A DNA stretch of 14,548 bases. It comes from Chlamydiia bacterium (GTDB lineage: Bacteria > Chlamydiota > Chlamydiia > Chlamydiales > Parachlamydiaceae). Made by a program: the position numbers and the translations under genes. Every line of letters begins with the position of its first letter. Within the stretch, counting starts at the first letter, position 1. The notes below the pieces were generated by a model. The model ran no database searches and was not told where the DNA came from. It worked only from the letters and a program-made list of their open reading frames with translations. Below are positions 516 through 14,409 of this stretch, piece by piece. The DNA is taken from NCBI GenBank assembly GCA_038257035.1, contig JBBSJT010000058.1, forward strand, positions 1 to 14,548, read 5' to 3'.

Positions 516-2426
516 ATGAAAATTACGCGTAAATATCCAATAGGTGCTGAGGTTATAGAAGGAAAGGGTGTACATTTCAGAGTTTGGGCCCCAAATCATA
601 AAAAAGTCAATATTGTTTTTGAAAAAAATGATCAATTGGTCGATAAACAAATTCTTGAAAAGGAAGACTCCGGTTATTTTTCACTTTTTGTTCCTCAAGT
701 GGAACCCGGCACTTTATACCGCTATCAATTAGATAATTCCTTAAACAATTATTCTGATCCTGCATCTAGATTTCAACCCTATGGAGTTGAAGGGCCATCT
801 TGTGTTGTTAACCCCTATTATGCATGGTCTGCACAAGAAAAAAAATGGCCTGGAACTTCATTGATTAATCAAATTATGTATGAAATGCATATCGGAACTT
901 TTACACAAGACGGCACTTATAACGCAGCAAAAAAGGAATTACCGGAATTGGCAAAAATAGGAATTACTTTAATAGAATTAATGCCTATTCATCAATTCCC
1001 GGGAAGCTTTGGTTGGGGTTATGATGGAATTAATTTATTTGCTCCTTATAACAAATATGGAACACCCGAAGAGCTTAAATCTTTTATCGATGAATGTCAT
1101 AAGCTTGGCATGGGCATTATTTTAGATGTGGTTTATAATCATTTTGGACCGGAAGGTAATTTCATAGATCAATTCAGCAAAGATTATTTTAACCAGAAAA
1201 AAAAAACGGACTGGGGCGCTGCAATCAATTTTGATCACCCATCTGTCTCTGAATTTTTTATTACGAATGCCAAATACTGGGTTGAAGAATTTCATTTTGA
1301 TGGCTTAAGAATCGATGCAACACCCGCATTTTTTTGTGAAACAGAAGAACATATCTTAGCGGCTCTTTCAAAAGCTGTAAAAAATTCCAATCCTAAAAAA
1401 AATAAAATTGTCATTGGTGAAGATGAAACACAAAACAATAAGCTTTTAAAACCTTTAGAAGAAAGTGGCTATGGTTTTGATGCTGTTTGGAACGATGATT
1501 TCCATCATACTGCCCTTGTGCGCTTAAAAGGTAAAAAGGAAGCTTATTACAAAGATTATTTAGGCTCCCCTCAGGAATTTATTTCTTCTTTTAAGTATGG
1601 ATTTCTCTATCAAGGCCAATATTATTATTGGCAAAAAAAGATAAGAGGCTCTTCCACTTTGGATTTTACTCCTTCATGCTTTATAATTTTTACAGAAAAT
1701 CATGATCAGATTGCAAATACAGGAACAGGTAAAAGAATCTATCAAATCACGGATCCTGGAATTTATAGAGCCATGACGGCACTCATGTTTTTTTCACCCA
1801 ATACTCCCCTGATTTTTCAAGGTCAGGAATTTGGTTCTTCCGCACCTTTTTATTATTTTGCAGATCATGCTGAATCCATTAATAAAATGGTTCACAAAGG
1901 TAGAAAAGAATTTTTAACACAGTTTGCAAGTTTAAAAGATAAGCTAGCTGCTAAAAAAATTGCTGATCCTTCTAATCCGGTTACATTTACAGATTGCAAG
2001 CTTAATTTTACTGAAAGGATAAAAAATAAAGCTCATTACAAATTTTATCAAGATTTAATTTCCCTTAGGAAAAATGATGAAATTTTTCAAAATATGCAAA
2101 CAATAAGAATGGATGGAGCAGTTTTAGGAGCTGATTCATTTTTAATCCGTTATTTCGGTGATAATCATAATGATAGATTAATTCTCATAAATTTTGGGAT
2201 AGATCAGCAATTGATACCTGCACCGGAGCCTTTATTAGTAGCAGGTGATGATTTTAAATGGATAATTTTGCTATCGACTCATTCAGTTGAATATGGGGGT
2301 GAAGGCATTGTACCTCTTGCAACATCTACATGGGAAATTCCCGGTCATACAGCTTTAATACTTGCGACTAAAAAATTAACAGCCAAAGAAATCATGGTTA
2401 AAAATGAATTGAAGGCTAAGAAATGA
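516..2426 (+). CDS. treZ: Malto-oligosyltrehalose trehalohydrolase (GH13, N-terminal CBM48-like domain)
   Basis: 636 aa; motifs FRVWAP, DPASRFQPYGV, YEMHIGTFT, WGYDG, DVVYNHFGPEGN, GLRIDA, WNDDFHH, ENHDQIAN, FQGQE; same operon as treY. Confidence 0.92.
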   Translation: MKITRKYPIGAEVIEGKGVHFRVWAPNHKKVNIVFEKNDQLVDKQILEKEDSGYFSLFVPQVEPGTLYRYQLDNSLNNYSDPASRFQPYGVEGPSCVVNPYYAWSAQEKKWPGTSLINQIMYEMHIGTFTQDGTYNAAKKELPELAKIGITLIELMPIHQFPGSFGWGYDGINLFAPYNKYGTPEELKSFIDECHKLGMGIILDVVYNHFGPEGNFIDQFSKDYFNQKKKTDWGAAINFDHPSVSEFFITNAKYWVEEFHFDGLRIDATPAFFCETEEHILAALSKAVKNSNPKKNKIVIGEDETQNNKLLKPLEESGYGFDAVWNDDFHHTALVRLKGKKEAYYKDYLGSPQEFISSFKYGFLYQGQYYYWQKKIRGSSTLDFTPSCFIIFTENHDQIANTGTGKRIYQITDPGIYRAMTALMFFSPNTPLIFQGQEFGSSAPFYYFADHAESINKMVHKGRKEFLTQFASLKDKLAAKKIADPSNPVTFTDCKLNFTERIKNKAHYKFYQDLISLRKNDEIFQNMQTIRMDGAVLGADSFLIRYFGDNHNDRLILINFGIDQQLIPAPEPLLVAGDDFKWIILLSTHSVEYGGEGIVPLATSTWEIPGHTALILATKKLTAKEIMVKNELKAKK

Positions 2427-4402
2427 AAAAAAATGATGATTTATGCAATGTCCCAAATGATGATGCCTATTTACTCTATCATGAATGGCTTTTTACTAAC
2501 GGTCTTGGGGGGTATTCTTGTGGCACTTTAAGTGGGACACCGACACGGAAGTACCACTCTTATCTAACAAGTGCCTTAAAAAATCCTTTTGGTAGGACCG
2601 TCATGTTAAATTACATTGCCGATTCCATCATCATTGCAGAACAAGAATTTCCAATATCACAATTATCTTTTAAAAATAAGCCGCTAGATACTTTAGCTTT
2701 AAAATGCGAATTTAGACTTGAAGAAAATATGCCTATATGGAGATATCAATTTGAAAATACCATTCTAGAAAAACGCATATGGATGGCTCATAGTCAAAAT
2801 ACGACATACATCGAATACGAATTAATTGAGTCAACAGAGATTGTTTCGCTTAAAATGCGCCCTTTCCTTCAATACAGAACTACTGAAAATGATGTTTATA
2901 CAGAGTTAGAAAATAACTATGAAATTCATACAGATATGCAAGGAATCGAAATTTTAAAGCTGCCTTTTCCTGGTTTAAAACTTATAAATACTCATTCAGT
3001 TTTTACAATAGATTTGCAAATAGTTGAAAATATTTATTATGAAATAGAGGAAAAACGCGGTTATGAATCTGTAGGTTCCTTGACGAGCCCGGGATTTTTT
3101 TTAGCACCTTTAAATATCCGTGAAAATATGACTTTTATTGCCTCTACAGAAGATTGGACTACAGCAAAAGCAATGTCAGCAAAAGAGGCGAAAACTGCTG
3201 AAAAACAAAGAATTAAATCTATTTTAAAAGAAGCTGAACCCCTTTCATTTTCAAAAACAGCCGCAAGACTCATTATTGCAGCAGACCAATTCATTATTAC
3301 ACCAAAAAGTAGAGAATTGGATATTGTCAAACTAACAGCGATGGGAGAAAACGTTTGTTCTGTCATTGCAGGCTATCCTTGGTTTACAGATTGGGGCAGA
3401 GACACTATGATTTCATTGGAAGGTCTGACACTCACGACAGGCAGACCCCATATTGCAAAGTCTATACTTCGTACATTTGCTTTATATATTCATAAAGGTC
3501 TTATCCCTAATATGTTCCCTGATGGTGAAAATTTAGGCCTTTATCATACTGCGGATGCCACATTATGGTTTTTTCATGCTGTTGATCGTTATATCACCCT
3601 AACAGGAGACAGAGATTTCCTAGATTTTATGTTGCCAAAATTTAAAGTTATTATTGAAAGCCATATTAAAGGCACTTTATTTGGTATAAAAGCTGATGTT
3701 GATGGTTTATTGATTCAGGGTGAAGATCATTATCAACTCACATGGATGGATGCAAAGGTCGATGACTGGGTTGTCACTCCTAGAAGAGGAAAAGCCGTTG
3801 AAATCAACGCTCTTTGGTACAACGCCTTACGACTTTTGGATGAATGGTCAGGAACAGAAAGTGATCTTGCAAAACAGTGCTATAAGTCTTTCAATGAAGT
3901 TTTTTGGAATGAAAAAGAAGGGTATTTGTATGATGTTATCTCTGATGGTATTAAAGACTCCTCTTTAAGACCGAATCAAATTTTTGCCATTTCTTTAAAA
4001 TATCCAGTTCTAGACCCTGCCCATTGGAAAAGTGTCATTGATATTGTAAAAAAAGAACTTGTCAAGCCAAAAGGCCTCAGGACTCTTTCAGCAAATCATA
4101 TCGATTATAAAGCTCTATATGAAGGTAATCTATTGAATCGCGACTCAGCTTATCATCAAGGGACAATATGGCCATGGCTAATAGGTTCTTTTATTGATGC
4201 TTGGCTAAAAGTATATCCGGATATTGAAGAAGCTAAAAAAATATTAATGCCGCTTGATAGTCATATTTATGAAGATTGCATTGGAACAATAAGTGAAATA
4301 TTTGATGCAGAAGATCCATTCCATGCTAAAGGCTGTTTTGCACAAGCCTGGAGTGTTGCAGAGTATTTACGTATTTATGCTAAATTAAACTTTAAAATGT
4401 GA
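2423..4402 (+). CDS. Amylo-alpha-1,6-glucosidase / glycogen debranching enzyme (GDE_N + GDE_C type)
   Basis: 659 aa; EWLFTNGLGGY, IAGYPWFTDWGRDTMISLEGL, LTWMDAK, TPRRGKAVEINALWYNAL, RPNQ, YHQGTIWPWL, GCFAQAWSVAE; ATGA overlap with the treZ stop suggests translational coupling. Confidence 0.92.
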   Translation: MKKNDDLCNVPNDDAYLLYHEWLFTNGLGGYSCGTLSGTPTRKYHSYLTSALKNPFGRTVMLNYIADSIIIAEQEFPISQLSFKNKPLDTLALKCEFRLEENMPIWRYQFENTILEKRIWMAHSQNTTYIEYELIESTEIVSLKMRPFLQYRTTENDVYTELENNYEIHTDMQGIEILKLPFPGLKLINTHSVFTIDLQIVENIYYEIEEKRGYESVGSLTSPGFFLAPLNIRENMTFIASTEDWTTAKAMSAKEAKTAEKQRIKSILKEAEPLSFSKTAARLIIAADQFIITPKSRELDIVKLTAMGENVCSVIAGYPWFTDWGRDTMISLEGLTLTTGRPHIAKSILRTFALYIHKGLIPNMFPDGENLGLYHTADATLWFFHAVDRYITLTGDRDFLDFMLPKFKVIIESHIKGTLFGIKADVDGLLIQGEDHYQLTWMDAKVDDWVVTPRRGKAVEINALWYNALRLLDEWSGTESDLAKQCYKSFNEVFWNEKEGYLYDVISDGIKDSSLRPNQIFAISLKYPVLDPAHWKSVIDIVKKELVKPKGLRTLSANHIDYKALYEGNLLNRDSAYHQGTIWPWLIGSFIDAWLKVYPDIEEAKKILMPLDSHIYEDCIGTISEIFDAEDPFHAKGCFAQAWSVAEYLRIYAKLNFKM

Positions 4403-4409
4403 GAATATT

Positions 4410-7136
4410 TTGAATCATGAACTTGTAGCGACTTACAGAATTCAATTGAATAAAGAATTTAATTTTAAGGATGCCGAAGAAATTATTCCTTATTTAAAAA
4501 AATTAGGGGTTAGCCATCTTTATTCATCCCCTATTCTTACAGCAAAAGAAAAAAGTACACATGGGTATGATGTCGTGGATCATGGTAAATTAAATCCGGA
4601 ACTTGGAAGTTATGAAGAGTTTGAAACATTCATAAAAAAATTACATGAATCAAACTTGTCGCTTCTTTTAGATATTGTTCCAAATCACATCTACATTGGG
4701 AATCTTGAGAATAAGTGGTGGCGAGATGTACTTAAAAATGGAAAAAAATCCTCATATGCAGCCTTTTTTGATATCGATTGGCACCCATTAAAAGATGCAT
4801 TCCATGAAAAAATTTATTTGCCACTACTAGATGAACCTTTTGGTAATTTTCTTGAAAATCAAAAAATTAAGCTTGTGTTTCAGGATGGTGAATTTTTTAT
4901 TCAGCTTTATACTTTTTTAATTCCTACGGATCCAAAAACAGCACATTTAGTGCTAGACCCACTTTTAGAGGAATTTAATAAGGTGTTCGAGCCTTCAAAC
5001 CCCTATTTACAAGAGTTCAAATCCATATTGCATGCTGAGCAATTCATTGAAAAATCAGATCACTTGTTTAAAAGATGCCCTAAGATGCTTGACATTCTTA
5101 CAAGCCACTTGAACACATTAAATGGCATTAAAGGAAATCCTGCGAGCTTTAATGATTTAGAAAAATTTTTGAAATCGCAGCATTATCGTTTATTTTACTG
5201 GAAAGTAGCAAATGATGAAATTAATTATCGAAGATTTTTTGATATTGTTGAATATGCTGCCATACGTATGGAAAAAGAAAAAGTGTTTGAAGAAACTCAC
5301 CATTTAATTTTAGATTTTATTAAGAAAGGTTTTATACAAGGTCTTCGTGTGGATCATATAGATGGACTCTATGAGCCGGAAAAATATCTTCATAAGTTAA
5401 AAGAAACAAATATTTCTTATTTAATTGTCGAAAAAATTTTATTAGGCAACGAGGTGTTAAGAAAATCGTGGCCTGTTAACGGCACGGTGGGTTATGATTT
5501 TTTAAATAGTTTAAATCAGCTTTTTATTTACAGCGATAATAAATCATCTTTTTTAAACTTATATAAAGAATTTACAGAAATTAACACCTTGCCAAGCCGC
5601 GTCAAGCATGATGCCAAACGCTTTATAATTCTTACTTCGTTAGCAAGTGAACTCAATTTATTAACACGAAAGTTAAATCATATCACAAATAATCATCGCC
5701 ATTCTTGCGATTTTTCCTATGAAAATTTAAAAAAAGCTTTAGGCGAAATCCTTGTTTATTTTCCCGTTTACCGCAGTTACATAAATGCTTCAAAGGGTGA
5801 AATAACTAAAGAAGACTCTCGATACATTGTAGCAGCAATTGCAAATGCGAAACGTTTCGATAAAAGCATTGACCCAGCAATTTATACCTTCATACAAAAC
5901 CTTTTTCTTTTAGAACGGATAAGCAATGATAAAGATTACTTAGAAAAATGTAATGACTTTGTTATGCACTTTCAACAGATCACAAGTCCGGTCATGGCAA
6001 AGGGTGTAGAAGATACCGCATTTTATCGGTATTTTCCATTGGCATCTGTTAATGAAGTAGGGAGTGAGATGGACTCTTTTGGAATGTCGTCTGAAACCTT
6101 TCATAAAAAAAACTTAGATAAGTTCGAATTTTATCCAAGTTCTCTTTTAGCATCTACCACACATGATACAAAACGAAGCGAAGACGTCCGAGCAAGAATG
6201 AATGCATTATCTGAAATACCTGATCAATGGAAACAGGGTTTATGGGATTGGAATCGGGTTAATGAACCTCTCAAGATTCAAACTGAAAATTATTTAATTC
6301 CAGATAAAAATGAAGAATATTTTATTTACGAAACACTTATTGGTACTTGGCCATTTGAGGGAATAGATGAAACTTATATTGGGCGTATACAGAATTATAT
6401 TGCTAAATCTATTAAAGAATCAAAAATTCATGAAAGCTGGATAAATCCGGATGAAGAGTATAGCAATAACATTCAATTATTTATTAAAAATATTTTAAAC
6501 AATAAAGATTTTTTAAATAAATTCACCCCTTTAAAGGATTTTATTCAAAATATGGGGATGTTAAACTCTCTTTCTCAAGTTTTGATTAAGCTAACATCGC
6601 CAGGCATTCCTGATATTTACCAGGGTAATGAAATTTGGGATTTTAGCTTAGTTGATCCTGATAACAGACGTCCAGTTGATTTTATTAAAAGAAATAAAAT
6701 GATAGATCGTTTAGAAAATGAAAATTTGCAAGCATTTTTAGATAATCCAGAAGATGGCATGATTAAGTTGTTTATTACAAAAAAAACTTTAGAATTCAGA
6801 AATAAAGAAAAAGAGCTATTTTCATTGGGTAATTACATTCCTTTAAATGTACAAGGGAAAACCCCTGAACATTGTATTGCCTTTGCACGCCTATTTGAAA
6901 ATAGAATCTGTTTGATTTTTGCAGCTAAATTCTTTTCATTTTTCATGGAATCTTTTAATAAATATAAAGATGAAAATTTTTGGAATTCACATTTTTTAAC
7001 AATTCCAATGGAAATGGTTGGATTGCCTTTTAAGAATATTTTTACCAATGAAATTCATGTATTTTCTGAACAGAAAATCCCACTTCAAGATTTGTTTAAA
7101 GTCATGCCTTTTGCTTTGCTCACCTCCACCACTTAA
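4410..7136 (+). CDS. treY: Malto-oligosyltrehalose synthase (GH13)
   Basis: 908 aa, TTG start 7 bp after the upstream stop; ATYRIQL, STHGYDVVD, LDIVPNH, INYRRFFD, GLRVDHIDGL, VEKIL, MAKGVEDTAFYRY, THDTKRSEDVRAR, PGIPDIYQG, SLVDPDNRRPVD. Confidence 0.95.
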   Translation: MNHELVATYRIQLNKEFNFKDAEEIIPYLKKLGVSHLYSSPILTAKEKSTHGYDVVDHGKLNPELGSYEEFETFIKKLHESNLSLLLDIVPNHIYIGNLENKWWRDVLKNGKKSSYAAFFDIDWHPLKDAFHEKIYLPLLDEPFGNFLENQKIKLVFQDGEFFIQLYTFLIPTDPKTAHLVLDPLLEEFNKVFEPSNPYLQEFKSILHAEQFIEKSDHLFKRCPKMLDILTSHLNTLNGIKGNPASFNDLEKFLKSQHYRLFYWKVANDEINYRRFFDIVEYAAIRMEKEKVFEETHHLILDFIKKGFIQGLRVDHIDGLYEPEKYLHKLKETNISYLIVEKILLGNEVLRKSWPVNGTVGYDFLNSLNQLFIYSDNKSSFLNLYKEFTEINTLPSRVKHDAKRFIILTSLASELNLLTRKLNHITNNHRHSCDFSYENLKKALGEILVYFPVYRSYINASKGEITKEDSRYIVAAIANAKRFDKSIDPAIYTFIQNLFLLERISNDKDYLEKCNDFVMHFQQITSPVMAKGVEDTAFYRYFPLASVNEVGSEMDSFGMSSETFHKKNLDKFEFYPSSLLASTTHDTKRSEDVRARMNALSEIPDQWKQGLWDWNRVNEPLKIQTENYLIPDKNEEYFIYETLIGTWPFEGIDETYIGRIQNYIAKSIKESKIHESWINPDEEYSNNIQLFIKNILNNKDFLNKFTPLKDFIQNMGMLNSLSQVLIKLTSPGIPDIYQGNEIWDFSLVDPDNRRPVDFIKRNKMIDRLENENLQAFLDNPEDGMIKLFITKKTLEFRNKEKELFSLGNYIPLNVQGKTPEHCIAFARLFENRICLIFAAKFFSFFMESFNKYKDENFWNSHFLTIPMEMVGLPFKNIFTNEIHVFSEQKIPLQDLFKVMPFALLTSTT

Positions 7137-7323
7137 AAGAAAGTTAATCCAATTTGGAGTACATTATGGATAAATTGAAAAACAGCTAAGACAAATCCTT
7201 AAATGCAAATATATACTGATGCTACTTGGAAGTGAAAATTTGCAATGTTCATAAAACTACTTATTATAACATCTTCGATTTTTTACAGGATATGCAGGAT
7301 CGCTACGCGACAAAGTCGCTTTA

Positions 7324-7598
7324 GCGCATATGCATTAAACTAAGAAGAGTAATTATAAAGCAGGCCTACAGCCTGCGACCACAACACCTTGAACCTCTAG
7401 GCATTGCCCTAGGCTGTCAAAAACCAGGGCTTTGCCCTGAAAAATCGTCTTTTAAGGCTGAAGGCCTGAGTTATAAAAGCCTAGGGCACCGCCCTAGGTA
7501 TGGTGAGGAATAACCACGCAGGCTGTAGGCCTGCATTATAATCAATCTTAAGATCTTTTATTTAAGCAATTTGAAGCCTTAGCTTAATGCGTATGCGC
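7324..7598. mobile_element. Second MITE-like insertion with 21-bp terminal inverted repeats and flanking direct repeat
   Basis: 7324-7344 gcgcatatgcattaaactaag versus 7578-7598 cttagcttaatgcgtatgcgc (19/21 inverted match). Flanked by TTTA on both sides (7320-7323, 7599-7602); the direct repeat extends to cgctttagcg (7317-7326, 7596-7605), so the exact boundary is ambiguous. Confidence 0.7.
7352..7542. repeat. REP/BIME-like cluster of short GC-rich hairpins, two units in inverted orientation
   Basis: Outer arms 7352-7377 and 7517-7542 match 25/26 inverted (gcaggcctacagcctgc core). Internal hairpins ctaggcattgccctag, cagggctttgccctg, aggctgaaggcct and cctagggcaccgccctagg. Same modules as 13279-13474. 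Confidence 0.88.
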
Positions 7599-7687
7599 TT
7601 TAGCGATCCTGCATATCCTGTAAAAAATCAAAAAATGATATAGATTGTAATGATCTAAATTTTCAAATTGAAGTAGAACCAGTATAT

Positions 7688-9709
7688 TTAAAAGGCTTTT
7701 AAAAGGATACTGCTGTAAGGGGCTATTTTAAAGAGATTATTCTCTACTTTTACTTCTTTCCCATCTTCAAAGAAATCTTCCGGTGATTTATTACCGGTTA
7801 CAATCACTTGATGCCAATTTTTATTATCCTGGCAAGGTGGAAGAACTACATCCCGATCTTCATTTGAGGCATTAAAAGCAATATAAAAAACAGGCTCATT
7901 TTTTTGTTTTTCAGAATTCAGTGTAAAGGCAACAAAATGATCTTTTTCCTCCCATTTAGGTTGATTTGGCACTAATCCATGCCATGAAATATGATTTTCT
8001 TTTAAATGTTTTTCAGGTTTTAAAAGAGGATTTTTGGCTTTAAAATGAATTAGAAAACGATAAAAATTAAAAAAGTCTTGGTTTTCTTGGATTTTATCCC
8101 ATAAAAACCAATTTATTTCATTATCTTGGGTCCACGAATTATTATTACCTTTTTTGGTGTGTCCATATTCATCCCCCATAAACAGCATGGGGATCCCTGG
8201 AGTAACCATCAGGGCTAATAGAAAATTGCGCATTTGTTTTTTTCTTAGATTTAGTATGTTTTTATCTTCTGTTTCCCCTTCAACACCACAATTCCAACTT
8301 TCGTTATTATCTAGGCCATCTTTGTTGTTTTCACCATTATTTAAATTATGTTTTTCATTATAACTGACTAAATCAGCTAAGTTAAAACCATCATGTGTTA
8401 CAATGTAATTAACGCTTGATGTTGGGATATTGGGATATATATTAAAATTGCCTGAAATCGCTTCTGAAAAGCTTTTTTTAGATCCTTTTGTGCCTTTTAT
8501 AAAATTCCTAATAGCTGATTGGTATTTTCCATTCCATTCAGACCAATGAGGATTTAAAGCGGCAAAATATCCCACTTGATAAAGCCCGACGGCATCCCAT
8601 GGTTCTGCAATGAGCTTAACATGAGATAAAATAGGATCTTCGGATATAAATTCTAATAAAGGAGGTCTTTCGATGGGTCCACCATCAAGTCCTCTTGAAA
8701 AAATGGATGCCAAGTCAAAACGAAAGCCATCAATGTGGCATTCTAAAACATAGTAACGCATGGCACTCATTAATAATTCCAACGAAACAGGATGATTGCA
8801 TTTAAAAGTATTTCCGCAACCAGAATAATTTTGGTAGGTATTATTTGGGCCTAAATGATAATAAGCAAGGGGGTTAAATGCTTTATAAGATTGTACTGGT
8901 CCTTTTTCATTCCCTTCAGAAGTGTGGTTCAAGACCATGTCAAGAATGATTTCGATGCCATTTTTGTGCAATTCTTTCACTAAATTTTTAAATTCAGTTA
9001 ATGCTTGATCACCTTCAGATTTACTTGAATAACGATTCATTAAACTAAAAAAATTAACTGTAGAATAACCAAAATAGTTATGATTTTTTTTTCCGGTTTC
9101 AGGATTAAATTGGGTCACATCTTCTTCACAAAATTCTTGTATCGGCATAAGTTCTATCGCGTTAATTCCAAGATCTTTCAAATAGGGAATTTTTTCGATG
9201 ATGCCTTGAAAGGTTCCTTTAGCACTTACATTACTAGAAAAATGCTTAGTGAACCCTCTGACATGCATTTCATAAATAATTAAATCATTTTTAGCAAGAT
9301 TGAGGGGTTTATCTCCTTGCCAATCAAATTGATGTGCTACCACTTTTCCAATAGGATTATATTTAAAATCTTGCCTAGATTCATTTTGCCATAAGGGCTC
9401 ACTTATAATTAATTTTGCATAGGGATCTAAAACAGATGCAAAACTTCCATCTTTGTTGACCACTTTGTAGTTATATCCAAAATTTAAAGGTAGATCTTTA
9501 ACAAAGATATGCCAAACATCCCCGGTTTTATTCACATCCGGATTGAAAGTAAGAGTTGAAAAAGGTAATTCTTTGTTTGCTTCTTGAGCTTTTTCATGGA
9601 ATAAAAGGAGGGTAAGTTCTTGAATGTCTTTTCCATATACGGCAAAATTAACGCCACTTTCTTTTACAGTTGCACCAAAAGGAAAACAATCACCTGCTTC
9701 AACTTCCAT
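7688..9709 (-). CDS. glgX: Glycogen debranching enzyme / isoamylase (GH13)
   Basis: PFGA...GVNFAVY, IIYEMHVRGFT, NYFGYST, DMVLNHT, NYSGCGNT, DGFRFDLAS, IAEPWD, THDGF, SWNCGVEG, GIPMLFMGDE. Start moved from 9775 to the ATG at 9709 (MEVEAGDCFPFGA), which has GGTG upstream and fits the usual GlgX N-terminus. Confidence 0.93.
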   Translation of the reverse strand: MEVEAGDCFPFGATVKESGVNFAVYGKDIQELTLLLFHEKAQEANKELPFSTLTFNPDVNKTGDVWHIFVKDLPLNFGYNYKVVNKDGSFASVLDPYAKLIISEPLWQNESRQDFKYNPIGKVVAHQFDWQGDKPLNLAKNDLIIYEMHVRGFTKHFSSNVSAKGTFQGIIEKIPYLKDLGINAIELMPIQEFCEEDVTQFNPETGKKNHNYFGYSTVNFFSLMNRYSSKSEGDQALTEFKNLVKELHKNGIEIILDMVLNHTSEGNEKGPVQSYKAFNPLAYYHLGPNNTYQNYSGCGNTFKCNHPVSLELLMSAMRYYVLECHIDGFRFDLASIFSRGLDGGPIERPPLLEFISEDPILSHVKLIAEPWDAVGLYQVGYFAALNPHWSEWNGKYQSAIRNFIKGTKGSKKSFSEAISGNFNIYPNIPTSSVNYIVTHDGFNLADLVSYNEKHNLNNGENNKDGLDNNESWNCGVEGETEDKNILNLRKKQMRNFLLALMVTPGIPMLFMGDEYGHTKKGNNNSWTQDNEINWFLWDKIQENQDFFNFYRFLIHFKAKNPLLKPEKHLKENHISWHGLVPNQPKWEEKDHFVAFTLNSEKQKNEPVFYIAFNASNEDRDVVLPPCQDNKNWHQVIVTGNKSPEDFFEDGKEVKVENNLFKIAPYSSILLKAF

Positions 9710-9745
9710 TTTTACACCAAAAAAATTTAAGTATTTAAAAAAATT

Positions 9746-9775
9746 TTTATAACAGTACTTTTCATAACGATGCAA
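9746..9775 (-). promoter_or_regulatory. Candidate sigma70-type promoter for glgX
   Basis: Minus strand TTGCAT-N18-TATAAA with TGn before the -10; 36 bp upstream of the ATG at 9709. The AT-rich background lowers specificity. Confidence 0.35.
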
Positions 9776-12454: not shown

Positions 12455-12477
12455 AGTTGTACATCTCTCAATTTTTA

Positions 12478-12559
12478 GGGTCAGGCTTTACAATATTACA
12501 GTTTTCGTTAATTTTTATATCTTTATGAAAAAAAACTGTCATATTGTAAAGCCTGACCC
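12478..12559. repeat. REPIN-like 28-bp inverted repeat between convergent genes; may act as a bidirectional terminator
   Basis: 12478-12505 gggtcaggctttacaatattacagtttt versus 12532-12559 aaaactgtcatattgtaaagcctgaccc: 27/28 inverted match with a 26-nt AT-rich loop. Confidence 0.85.
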
Positions 12560-12579
12560 CACAATATTTTCTAAGAATC

Positions 12580-13248: not shown

Positions 13249-13278
13249 AATATGCCCTTATAAATTCAGTCTGAATTA

Positions 13279-13474
13279 TCAGGGCAAAGCCCTGGTTTAT
13301 AAAAGCCTAGGGCAACGCCCTAGGTACGATATTGCTAAATATGCAGGCTGTAGGCCTGCGTTATTCCCATAAATTGCTTTATATAGTTATAACGCAGGCC
13401 TACAGCCTGCCATTTTTTTTATAATATACCTAGGGCGCTGCCCTAGGCTTTTATAAACCAGGGCGTTGCCCTGA
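13279..13474. repeat. REP/BIME-like composite inverted doublet (196 bp)
   Basis: Arms 13279-13326 and 13427-13474 match 46/48 inverted; 16-nt unrelated spacers; 13343-13364 and 13389-13410 match 22/22 inverted; 24-nt central loop. Confidence 0.92.
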
Positions 13475-13526
13475 AAACCAGTAATCAACTCAATCATGGT
13501 ATATAGTTTATAAAAAAAAATGTCTA

Positions 13527-14206: not shown

Positions 14207-14409
14207 TATACCGATTCTACTTCAACCTGAAATTTTACGCTGATCCCTCAGAAGACATTGCAATAAGATTTTTTTACCAGTGAGGCAGTGAGAGCAACAT
14301 GAGGACAGTGAGGGGCTCTGAGTTCTAAACCTCTCACTGTCCTCATTTTGCTCTCACTGCCTCACTGGTAAAAAATTCAAAAGTTTTCTCTTCCTGCAGC
14401 ACCAGTCTT
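14207..14409. mobile_element. Second copy of the ERIC-like MITE in opposite orientation, one end degenerate, carrying a different hairpin
   Basis: Reverse complement of 14206-14237 matches 7656-7687 at 27/32. 14381-14409 matches the reverse complement of 7212-7241 at 22/30 with one gap. Fills most of the mgtE-methyltransferase gap. Confidence 0.65.
14270..14375. repeat. Long hairpin with 46-bp arms and internal CAGTGAG repeats
   Basis: 14270-14315 versus 14330-14375: 44/46 inverted match with a 14-nt loop; three CAGTGAG copies per arm; downstream of the mgtE stop. Confidence 0.92.

Follow-up and report, generated by a model that had tools for sequence, protein, structure and literature searches.

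The gap between two convergent genes of a chlamydial genome raises the question of how several kinds of repeats come to lie one inside the other, and which enzyme put them there. It is part of the window, i.e. the whole stretch of 14,548 nucleotides that was analyzed (contig C58), from a genome of 2.37 Mb with 36% GC in 210 contigs (G000). The gap comprises 550 bp and separates treY for malto-oligosyltrehalose synthase (4410–7136, forward strand; TIGR02401, 904 bits, cut-off 499), which converges on the nest, from the gene of a glgX-like debranching enzyme (7688–9775, reverse strand; TIGR02100, 557 bits, below the cut-off of 641). Positions 516–9775 hold a cluster of treZ, a debranching-enzyme gene and treY, convergent with the glgX-like gene. 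Four layers are found at this site: a TA-flanked shell encloses a hairpin of a GxxExxY-linked family, the hairpin encloses a MITE and the MITE encloses two arms of a Y1-transposase element. The 269-bp element in the third layer is very probably an IS231-type MITE of the IS4 family, with CAT...ATG ends and a 10-bp duplication, that was moved by a DDE transposase acting in trans. No effect of the insertion on the host is demonstrated.

The locus and the order of its layers

The insertion sits in a hairpin repeat (family A) of which 160 arms are present in the genome. One arm with a small side stem occupies positions 7277–7316 and the rest of the hairpin arm 7606–7629 (both forward strand). As the initial annotation had recognized, CGCTTTAGCG occurs at 7317–7326 and again at 7596–7605, 279 bp apart, and deletion of one copy together with the intervening DNA yields a hairpin of 74 nt with 29-bp arms (−37.3 kcal/mol as DNA). 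The filled region (7270–7640) folds with z = −14.1 against 100 shuffles. Because of the 10-bp duplication the hairpin came first and the MITE second, and the proposal that a mobile element went into a pre-existing hairpin repeat with duplication of its target site is supported; we infer the order of the remaining layers. The target corresponds to positions 41–50 of the 74-mer, across the small side stem and the right arm and off the hairpin apex.

A search for the uninterrupted hairpin, as had been suggested, revealed one close copy at C8:2899–2969 (96% over 72 nt) and one degenerate copy on C10 (89%), so this 74-bp short form is rare. At C8:2838–3040 the shell and the short hairpin occur together without the MITE in 203 bp, compared with 475 − 279 = 196 bp in the window. 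In its usual form the host repeat has a greater length (one spacing, about 133 bp overall, is common to 15 of 32 arm pairs). Since the long form is the usual one and the short form rare, an internal deletion of the hairpin could have happened before or after the insertion. The target lay inside a hairpin, whose exact state before insertion may or may not have been the 74-bp short form.

Family-A arms bracket a GxxExxY/PDDEXK_3 gene (PF13366) in genome G005. The two GxxExxY (PF13366) genes of G000 were rejected as partners of family A, each being flanked by another hairpin family. On contig C96 of G014 family-A arms surround a 140-aa ORF without Pfam match. Family A lacks the pattern of GTAG-type REPs and REPINs, in which a short palindrome tagged GTAG or GGAG adjoins a RAYT gene, and by inspection none of its arms lies beside any Y1 locus of G000; it is REP-like, not REP.

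The outer shell (7214–7684), which the initial annotation had overlooked, has imperfect TIRs and TA at positions 7212–7213 and 7685–7686; the stop codon of the glgX-like gene lies 1 bp outside this TA. TIRs combined with a TA duplication are found in IS630/Tc1-mariner MITEs, and by its end structure alone the shell appears to be IS630/Tc1-like. Its end motif has 91 matches in G000 (a few of them spurious) with several different hairpin cargos, and some copies form head-to-head junctions with a single common TA. PF13358 gave no match in G000. Multiple copies of the end motif occur in two of 301 genomes, and inspection of 12 loci there revealed no shell transposase. Another shell end, followed by a different hairpin of 112 bp (arms 14267–14315 and 14330–14378), occurs at 14207–14378 of the window; the motif search did not find the second end of this shell. 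Positions 12473–12564 form an inverted repeat with 40-bp arms between convergent ORFs.

A true empty allele of the locus was found neither in relatives nor in runs X1–X3. In the 11 relatives examined, treY was not found within about 1.5 kb of glgX. Run X1 contained a joint 7321→7603 with one other base and only 24 bases on its short side, which was rejected as an empty allele as it spells a C8-type hairpin with a 3-base spacer; runs X2 and X3 contained mere scraps of the locus region. In a fragmented MAG the whole nest could also be an assembly chimera of repeats: many of the 210 contigs are broken at these repeats and no single X1 contig runs across the nest. This seems extremely unlikely, for the duplication matches on both sides, its removal restores a known host form (the shell and hairpin on C8), and an X1 contig covers 7480–7608 including the right junction with zero differences, X1 being perhaps the source sample.

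Ends and target-site duplication of the MITE

The MITE (family B; 7327–7595, 269 bp) is 80–90% identical to four other complete copies and non-coding, the longest open frame in the region having 62 codons. Its TIRs comprise 17 bp. The short end (7327–7343, forward strand) has two mismatches to the other TIR, and the long end (7579–7595, reverse strand) matches the consensus. Next to the latter about 35 bp (7543–7578, reverse strand) resemble, by inspection, the subterminal left end of an autonomous IS as seen at an IS end in G002. Since one end keeps this stretch, the element is best read as the shell of an IS with its gene replaced.

Further copies, for which a genome search had been proposed, were found with the 17-mer (at most two mismatches, at least 25 nt of flank): G000 contains 44 MITE or IS ends, with seven assembled left–right pairs that span 262–469 bp. 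An exact 10-bp direct repeat is present at four of these pairs (C2, C23, C28, C58), and among lengths from 4 to 15 bp no other occurs; the pairs at C43, C46 and C52 are without matching duplication. At C43 both ends are of the long type, and this pair appears to be a product of recombination or misassembly. The near-identical copies at C2 and C23 (98.5%) occupy separate loci and have separate duplications. The condition that would have refuted the initial reading, namely that uninterrupted hairpins and further elements with flanking duplications are both lacking, therefore does not apply. If the duplication is read as 10 bp, the outer three target positions pair in 39, 39 and 40 of the 44 ends; the corresponding counts are 6/2/3 for 9 bp, 19/8/2 for 11 bp and 3/8/33 for 12 bp.

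The initial annotation had placed the ends at GCGCATAYGCATTAA (GCGCAT...ATGCGC), had left open whether 4, 6, 8 or 10 bp are duplicated, and had taken a likeness of target and element end as a hint of sequence-directed targeting. G stands at position −1 in 33 of the 44 ends, and most have GCG, as GCGCAT ends with a 4-bp duplication would have it. Nevertheless five ends of a longer IS at contig breaks of G000 (C55, C98, C4, C63, C170) show the same TIR after GGT-N4-ACC, and in relatives it follows GCA, GCC, TCG, GCT, CTT and others. Because ACC or other triplets precede the same TIR, the element starts at CAT, the flanking GCG is part of the palindromic target CGC-N4-GCG (here CGC-TTTA-GCG), and the duplication is exactly 10 bp. 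Whole 10-mers are duplicated in relatives, and several copies whose 10-bp duplication does not end in GCG refute the GCGCAT reading, which is hardly conceivable any more. Targeting is indeed non-random, but the route via likeness of target and element end finds no support.

Beside family-A arms the MITE is seen in both orientations. In one copy (C4:14457–14880) the cargo is doubled in tandem and a TIR is truncated, and another (C52:15111–15579) has a further hairpin family nested inside. At L014 (G014), L018 (G010) and L021 (G007) the flanks are mirror images, the whole locus being one palindrome, by recombination, arm copying or misassembly. In the sister genome G002 (L229–L246, L030) several ends are shifted from the 10-bp register by one or two bases and fall within a dyad of 12 bp; these single ends without paired copy suggest duplications of 11–12 bp.

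The duplications also bear on the idea that the nest was made by the repeat system itself, either by a Y1/HUH transposase or by fold-back or template-switch copying of arms, with the TIRs as passive remnants. The cargo does consist of Y1-element arms, TIR-free head-out doublets of the same unit occur in G175 and G063, and both the mirror-image flanks at L014, L018 and L021 and the paired long ends of C43 would fit. Against this, a perfect 10-bp direct repeat abuts both TIRs, a footprint as in full-length DDE elements, and IS200/IS605-type Y1 enzymes are not known to make target duplications. The matched duplications at C2, C23, C28 and C58, with C2 and C23 near-identical at different loci, largely refute such an origin, which we regard as very improbable.

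The probable parent insertion sequence and its transposase

The five IS ends in G000 carry the first codons (MMENKMQDLK) and the last codons of a related transposase, and two left and two right ends have one common 10-mer. In the G000 assembly an intact transposase of this IS gave no match, just a 30-aa C-terminal piece; the single PF01609 match (C175) was rejected as partner, being an unrelated IS1634 transposase. A transposase gene bounded by the same ends had been named as the thing to look for, and it is present in relatives: identical TIRs bound transposase-bearing elements of 1491 bp in G001, 1520 bp in G078 and 1863 bp in G079. The element in G001, a genome of the same genus, has its IS4 gene split into frames of 316 and 130 aa and a repeat matching in 9 of 10 positions. 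G079 contains 11 full-length copies, seven with an exact 10-bp duplication and four without a matching one. Its transposase is a single ORF of 466 aa (L052:1513–2913; NF033592, 207 bits, cut-off 115), 66–67% identical to the protein of G001, with D131, D202 and E338 at spacers of 70 and 135 that fit the IS4 pattern D(60–110)D(100–150)E, and with the YREK signature Y(2)R(3)E(6)K at residues 331–345. The MITE is thus short, non-coding and multi-copy, has TIRs in common with an autonomous IS and a duplication as long as that of the cognate IS.

The TIR fits the IS231 signature CAT-------AA--TAA at all eight fixed positions, and an IS4 end of Bacillus mycoides also has CAT and AAGCTAAG. Among plasmid-borne proteins the closest are IS4 transposases of Bacillus with about 30% identity (707 of 891 records are from this genus); a PDB search gave only weak matches to Tn5 transposase (E about 0.09). 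Both the repeat of 10 bp and the element lengths of 1491–1863 bp fall within the ranges of the IS231 subgroup (10–12 bp and 1450–5400 bp). Judged by ends, repeat length and nearest matches rather than by a tree, the IS would belong to this subgroup.

In the G079 IS (L052:2900–3268) about 340 bp of hairpin-rich DNA, absent from the G078 element, separate the stop codon from the right TIR and have the TIR's inner 9 bp on either side. The IS may here have fused with a neighbouring MITE, or this may be a stage of cargo capture. Other IS231-type families, which have related TIRs, 30–40% protein identity and the same or similar target repeats, are found at L064–L070 (G079) and L047–L050. A Petroclostridium record (L094:505–2017) contains a full element of 1497 bp that has this TIR too and is flanked by a perfect duplication of 10 bp; its boundary lies right beside, and outside, the first codon of what by eye resembles a cas1 gene.

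The cargo

Between the TIRs of the MITE lie two inverted copies of a repeat unit U (7351–7443, forward strand, and 7450–7542, reverse strand). U comprises 93 bp with three small hairpins and forms the arms of an element with a subclass-1.2 Y1 transposase gene; within the second copy positions 7454–7498 match Rfam Acido-Lenti-1 (37.6 bits, cut-off 37). In G000 inverted copies of U flank a Y1 gene at C105:2265–2717, whose product has the Y-x3-Q-x2-HH signature given for subclass 1.2 in PMC6006769. Gene-sized head-in pairs of U are also present in five other genomes, as expected for arms of subclass-1.2 TnpA-Y1 elements or TIRtrons.

U doublets in other chlamydial genomes are mostly head-in, as around the Y1 gene. 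G000 has 63 U heads, which form 19 head-out pairs and a single short head-in pair. The latter is located in the window itself (13273–13477), free-standing and without IS231-type TIRs, and looks like a Y1 element minus its gene. A TIR occurs at one of two fixed distances from 31 U heads, compared with none in shuffles (at most three mismatches). As TIR-free head-out doublets are also present in G175 and G063, the doublet had probably formed already when the MITE took it up. Elsewhere in G000 nine PF01797 matches are spread over seven loci, at least five of them flanked by a hairpin family of their own, and at C1:9661 a U doublet lies beside the end of a second-type IS231-type family.

Proposed mechanism and target choice

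In the mechanism that we propose an IS231-type IS would have lost its gene and kept both 17-bp TIRs with about 35 bp of its left end, and the inverted pair of Y1-element arms would have come to occupy the place of the transposase gene. A DDE transposase, presumably supplied in trans by an IS231-type element, would bind the two TIRs and, in a cut-and-paste reaction, join them to target DNA cut with a 10-bp stagger about the centre of a GC-rich symmetric site N-G-Y-N4-R-C-N, here CGC-TTTA-GCG; repair of the gaps would leave the 10-bp duplication. This target would be recognized as double-stranded sequence rather than as an extruded hairpin. Dyad CGC-GCG is used by 29 of 39 non-IS ends, against GGT-ACC at all five IS ends, and because of this difference the MITE may have been moved by a different or older transposase.

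The consensus N-G-Y-N4-R-C-N fits 37 of the 44 ends in G000. Of these 35 are perfect 3-bp dyads, compared with 28% of 3203 motif-fitting non-coding background sites (p = 1e-17, a value that treats ends as independent where two may be one insertion). Within family A, CGC-N4-GCG is occupied at 11 of 43 sites and CGC-N3-GCG at 0 of 137 (p = 5e-8, with ends again counted as independent where two may be one insertion, and a 10-bp cut assumed); as a check, all 17 ends beside family-A arms follow the dyad with 4-base spacer. By flank motif the ends divide into 17 in family A, 14 in the GTAG-type family D (including the five IS ends), six in family E and seven unassigned ones; by inspection, the Y1 genes at C119 and C29 lie between arms that resemble those of D and E. 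Since 301 of 406 CGC-N4-GCG sites sit in the repeated 3% of G000, dyad preference together with selection against insertion into genes can account for most of what looks like hairpin targeting. The repeated insertions into hairpin repeats come about because GC-rich dyads in a genome of 36% GC are mostly found inside them. Among the GTDB matches listed, 33 of 128 flanks are full 3-bp dyads at 10 bp, compared with at most seven of 128 at other lengths from 7 to 13 bp and a shuffled mean of 2.0.

The transposase probably reads sequence. It is also possible, if unlikely, that the same enzyme on the same element picks its target by shape, i.e. recognizes a small extruded stem that carries a loop of 4 nt, irrespective of its sequence. 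One TIR is found at both CGC-GCG and GGT-ACC dyads in G000, the 33 full-dyad flanks (of 128 among the GTDB matches listed; shuffled mean 2.0, maximum 7) contain sixteen different triplet pairs, and the odd-spacer site L136 gives an 11-bp repeat. The strong enrichment of perfect dyads over motif-only sites in G000 would be predicted by shape recognition as well. However, triplet diversity across genomes is expected anyway, since genomes differ in their transposases, and the stems are merely 3–6 bp long (4–6 bp at four clean sites). The target in the window straddles side stem and main arm, away from the apex, and six of seven G079 targets consist of a 2-bp inner stem followed by an outer mismatch and lie in tandem hexamer repeats, not in hairpin loops. 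Moreover, the AT-richer dyads AGC-GCT, AGT-ACT, TGC-GCA and TGT-ACA (384 non-coding sites) are hardly used in G000, and palindromic sequence targets are usual for DDE elements, as described for IS231A (PMC2577343) and IS186 (PMC5009759).

Distribution and significance

The exact TIR pattern is present in 12 of the 41 genomes sampled (including G000) and in 10 of 24 within the family. A GTDB scan gave at least 119 loci, and among the matches listed the TIR occurs in Chloroflexota, Gammaproteobacteria, Bacillota and others; public records with this element family are, among the matches listed, labelled Parachlamydiaceae or Chlamydiae. By their cargo, 35 short TIR-bounded elements group into 20 clusters. 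Five of these (13 elements), all of them chlamydial, contain inverted doublets with a length of at least about 200 nt, and most non-chlamydial clusters are without them. Because these five chlamydial clusters hold inverted doublets, capture of hairpin doublets by this shell seems to be recurrent in the group.

In a wider reading DDE shells in these chlamydiae would recurrently capture hairpin arms of unrelated Y1 and GxxExxY systems and so become the chief means by which these arms spread, with a transposase that reads stems with a 4-nt loop and not sequence. We consider it rather doubtful. If it were true, the IS231-type shell would have shifted U in G000 from the head-in doublets usual elsewhere to head-out ones (19 vs 1), a shape-reading transposase would track whichever repeat families a genome has, and the result would be a self-feeding hierarchy of repeats in which the copy number of a "REP" is not set by its partner HUH enzyme.

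Apart from this wider reading, the nest is a clean four-layer case of known behaviour rather than a new mechanism, and each ingredient is known in kind: targeting of palindromic repeats by the IS4 family, gene-less IS231 derivatives and TIRtron arms. It adds a well-documented pair of IS231-type IS and MITE far outside Bacillus, with a 10-bp symmetric target; the relative G079 has an intact, multi-copy transposase that could be assayed. Roughly half the copies of a single Y1-associated repeat in G000 are carried inside a DDE MITE, which calls for caution in attributing REP-like repeats to their RAYT-like partner. Targets of different sequence and common symmetry lend themselves to testing whether IS4-family transposases read sequence or shape.

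Comparison with known systems

No account of this element or of GxxExxY-linked palindromes was found in the literature searched; ISfinder, supplements and subscription papers may name the IS. The nearest known system is the IS231 subgroup of the IS4 family, for which Table 1 of De Palmenaer, Siguier & Mahillon (2008, PMC2266710) gives CAT-7-AA-2-TAA ends and repeats of 10–12 bp. Common to the subgroup as described there and the elements presented here are the end signature, the duplication of 10–12 bp, the DDE spacing and YREK of the cognate transposase and a symmetric GC-rich target. In contrast, IS231 is according to that source nearly restricted to the Bacillus cereus group. The TIR presented here is also found in Chlamydiota, Chloroflexota and further phyla, and the cognate transposase is only about 30% identical to those of Bacillus. 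For IS231A an 11-bp duplication with a GGG-N5-CCC target is listed (PMC2577343, Table 1), so its spacer has 5 bases instead of the 4 (10 bp) found here.

Gene-less derivatives are known as MIC231, which according to a review (PMC6199540) have IS231-type inverted repeats without transposase, keep the region beside the left repeat, as does our element, and are mobilized in trans, as the 269-bp MITE would be. MIC231s are described there as about 0.7–3 kb long with protein-coding genes, whereas the present element has 269 bp and two non-coding arms of a Y1 element and so falls outside that definition.

Insertion into palindromes has parallels as well. ISRm22 is also an IS4-family element that enters the palindromic axis of REP-type repeats (Tobes & Pareja 2006, PMC1525189), and some of its copies, like some of those here, have non-matching flanks, which that paper puts down to recombination. 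It differs in being autonomous, in its subgroup (IS4Sa) and, as reported there, in its 6-bp repeats and its use of one REP family; the TIR family described here uses at least three unrelated repeat families in G000. IS186 of Escherichia coli likewise inserts with high specificity into a GC-rich palindrome, which has few copies in the genome and is over-represented in non-coding DNA, but its motif is GGGG-N6/7-CCCC and it is autonomous (PMC5009759).

As to the cargo, TIRtrons or TIRYT (Di Nocera 2013, PMC3733652) are described with a long hairpin-rich inverted repeat around a Y1 gene, as U is, and the signature given for TnpA-Y1 subclass 1.2 (Quentin 2018, PMC6006769) is common to the Y1 gene flanked by U. 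Unlike TIRtrons as these papers describe them, the arm pair here is carried head-out inside a MITE that was in all likelihood mobilized by a DDE transposase.
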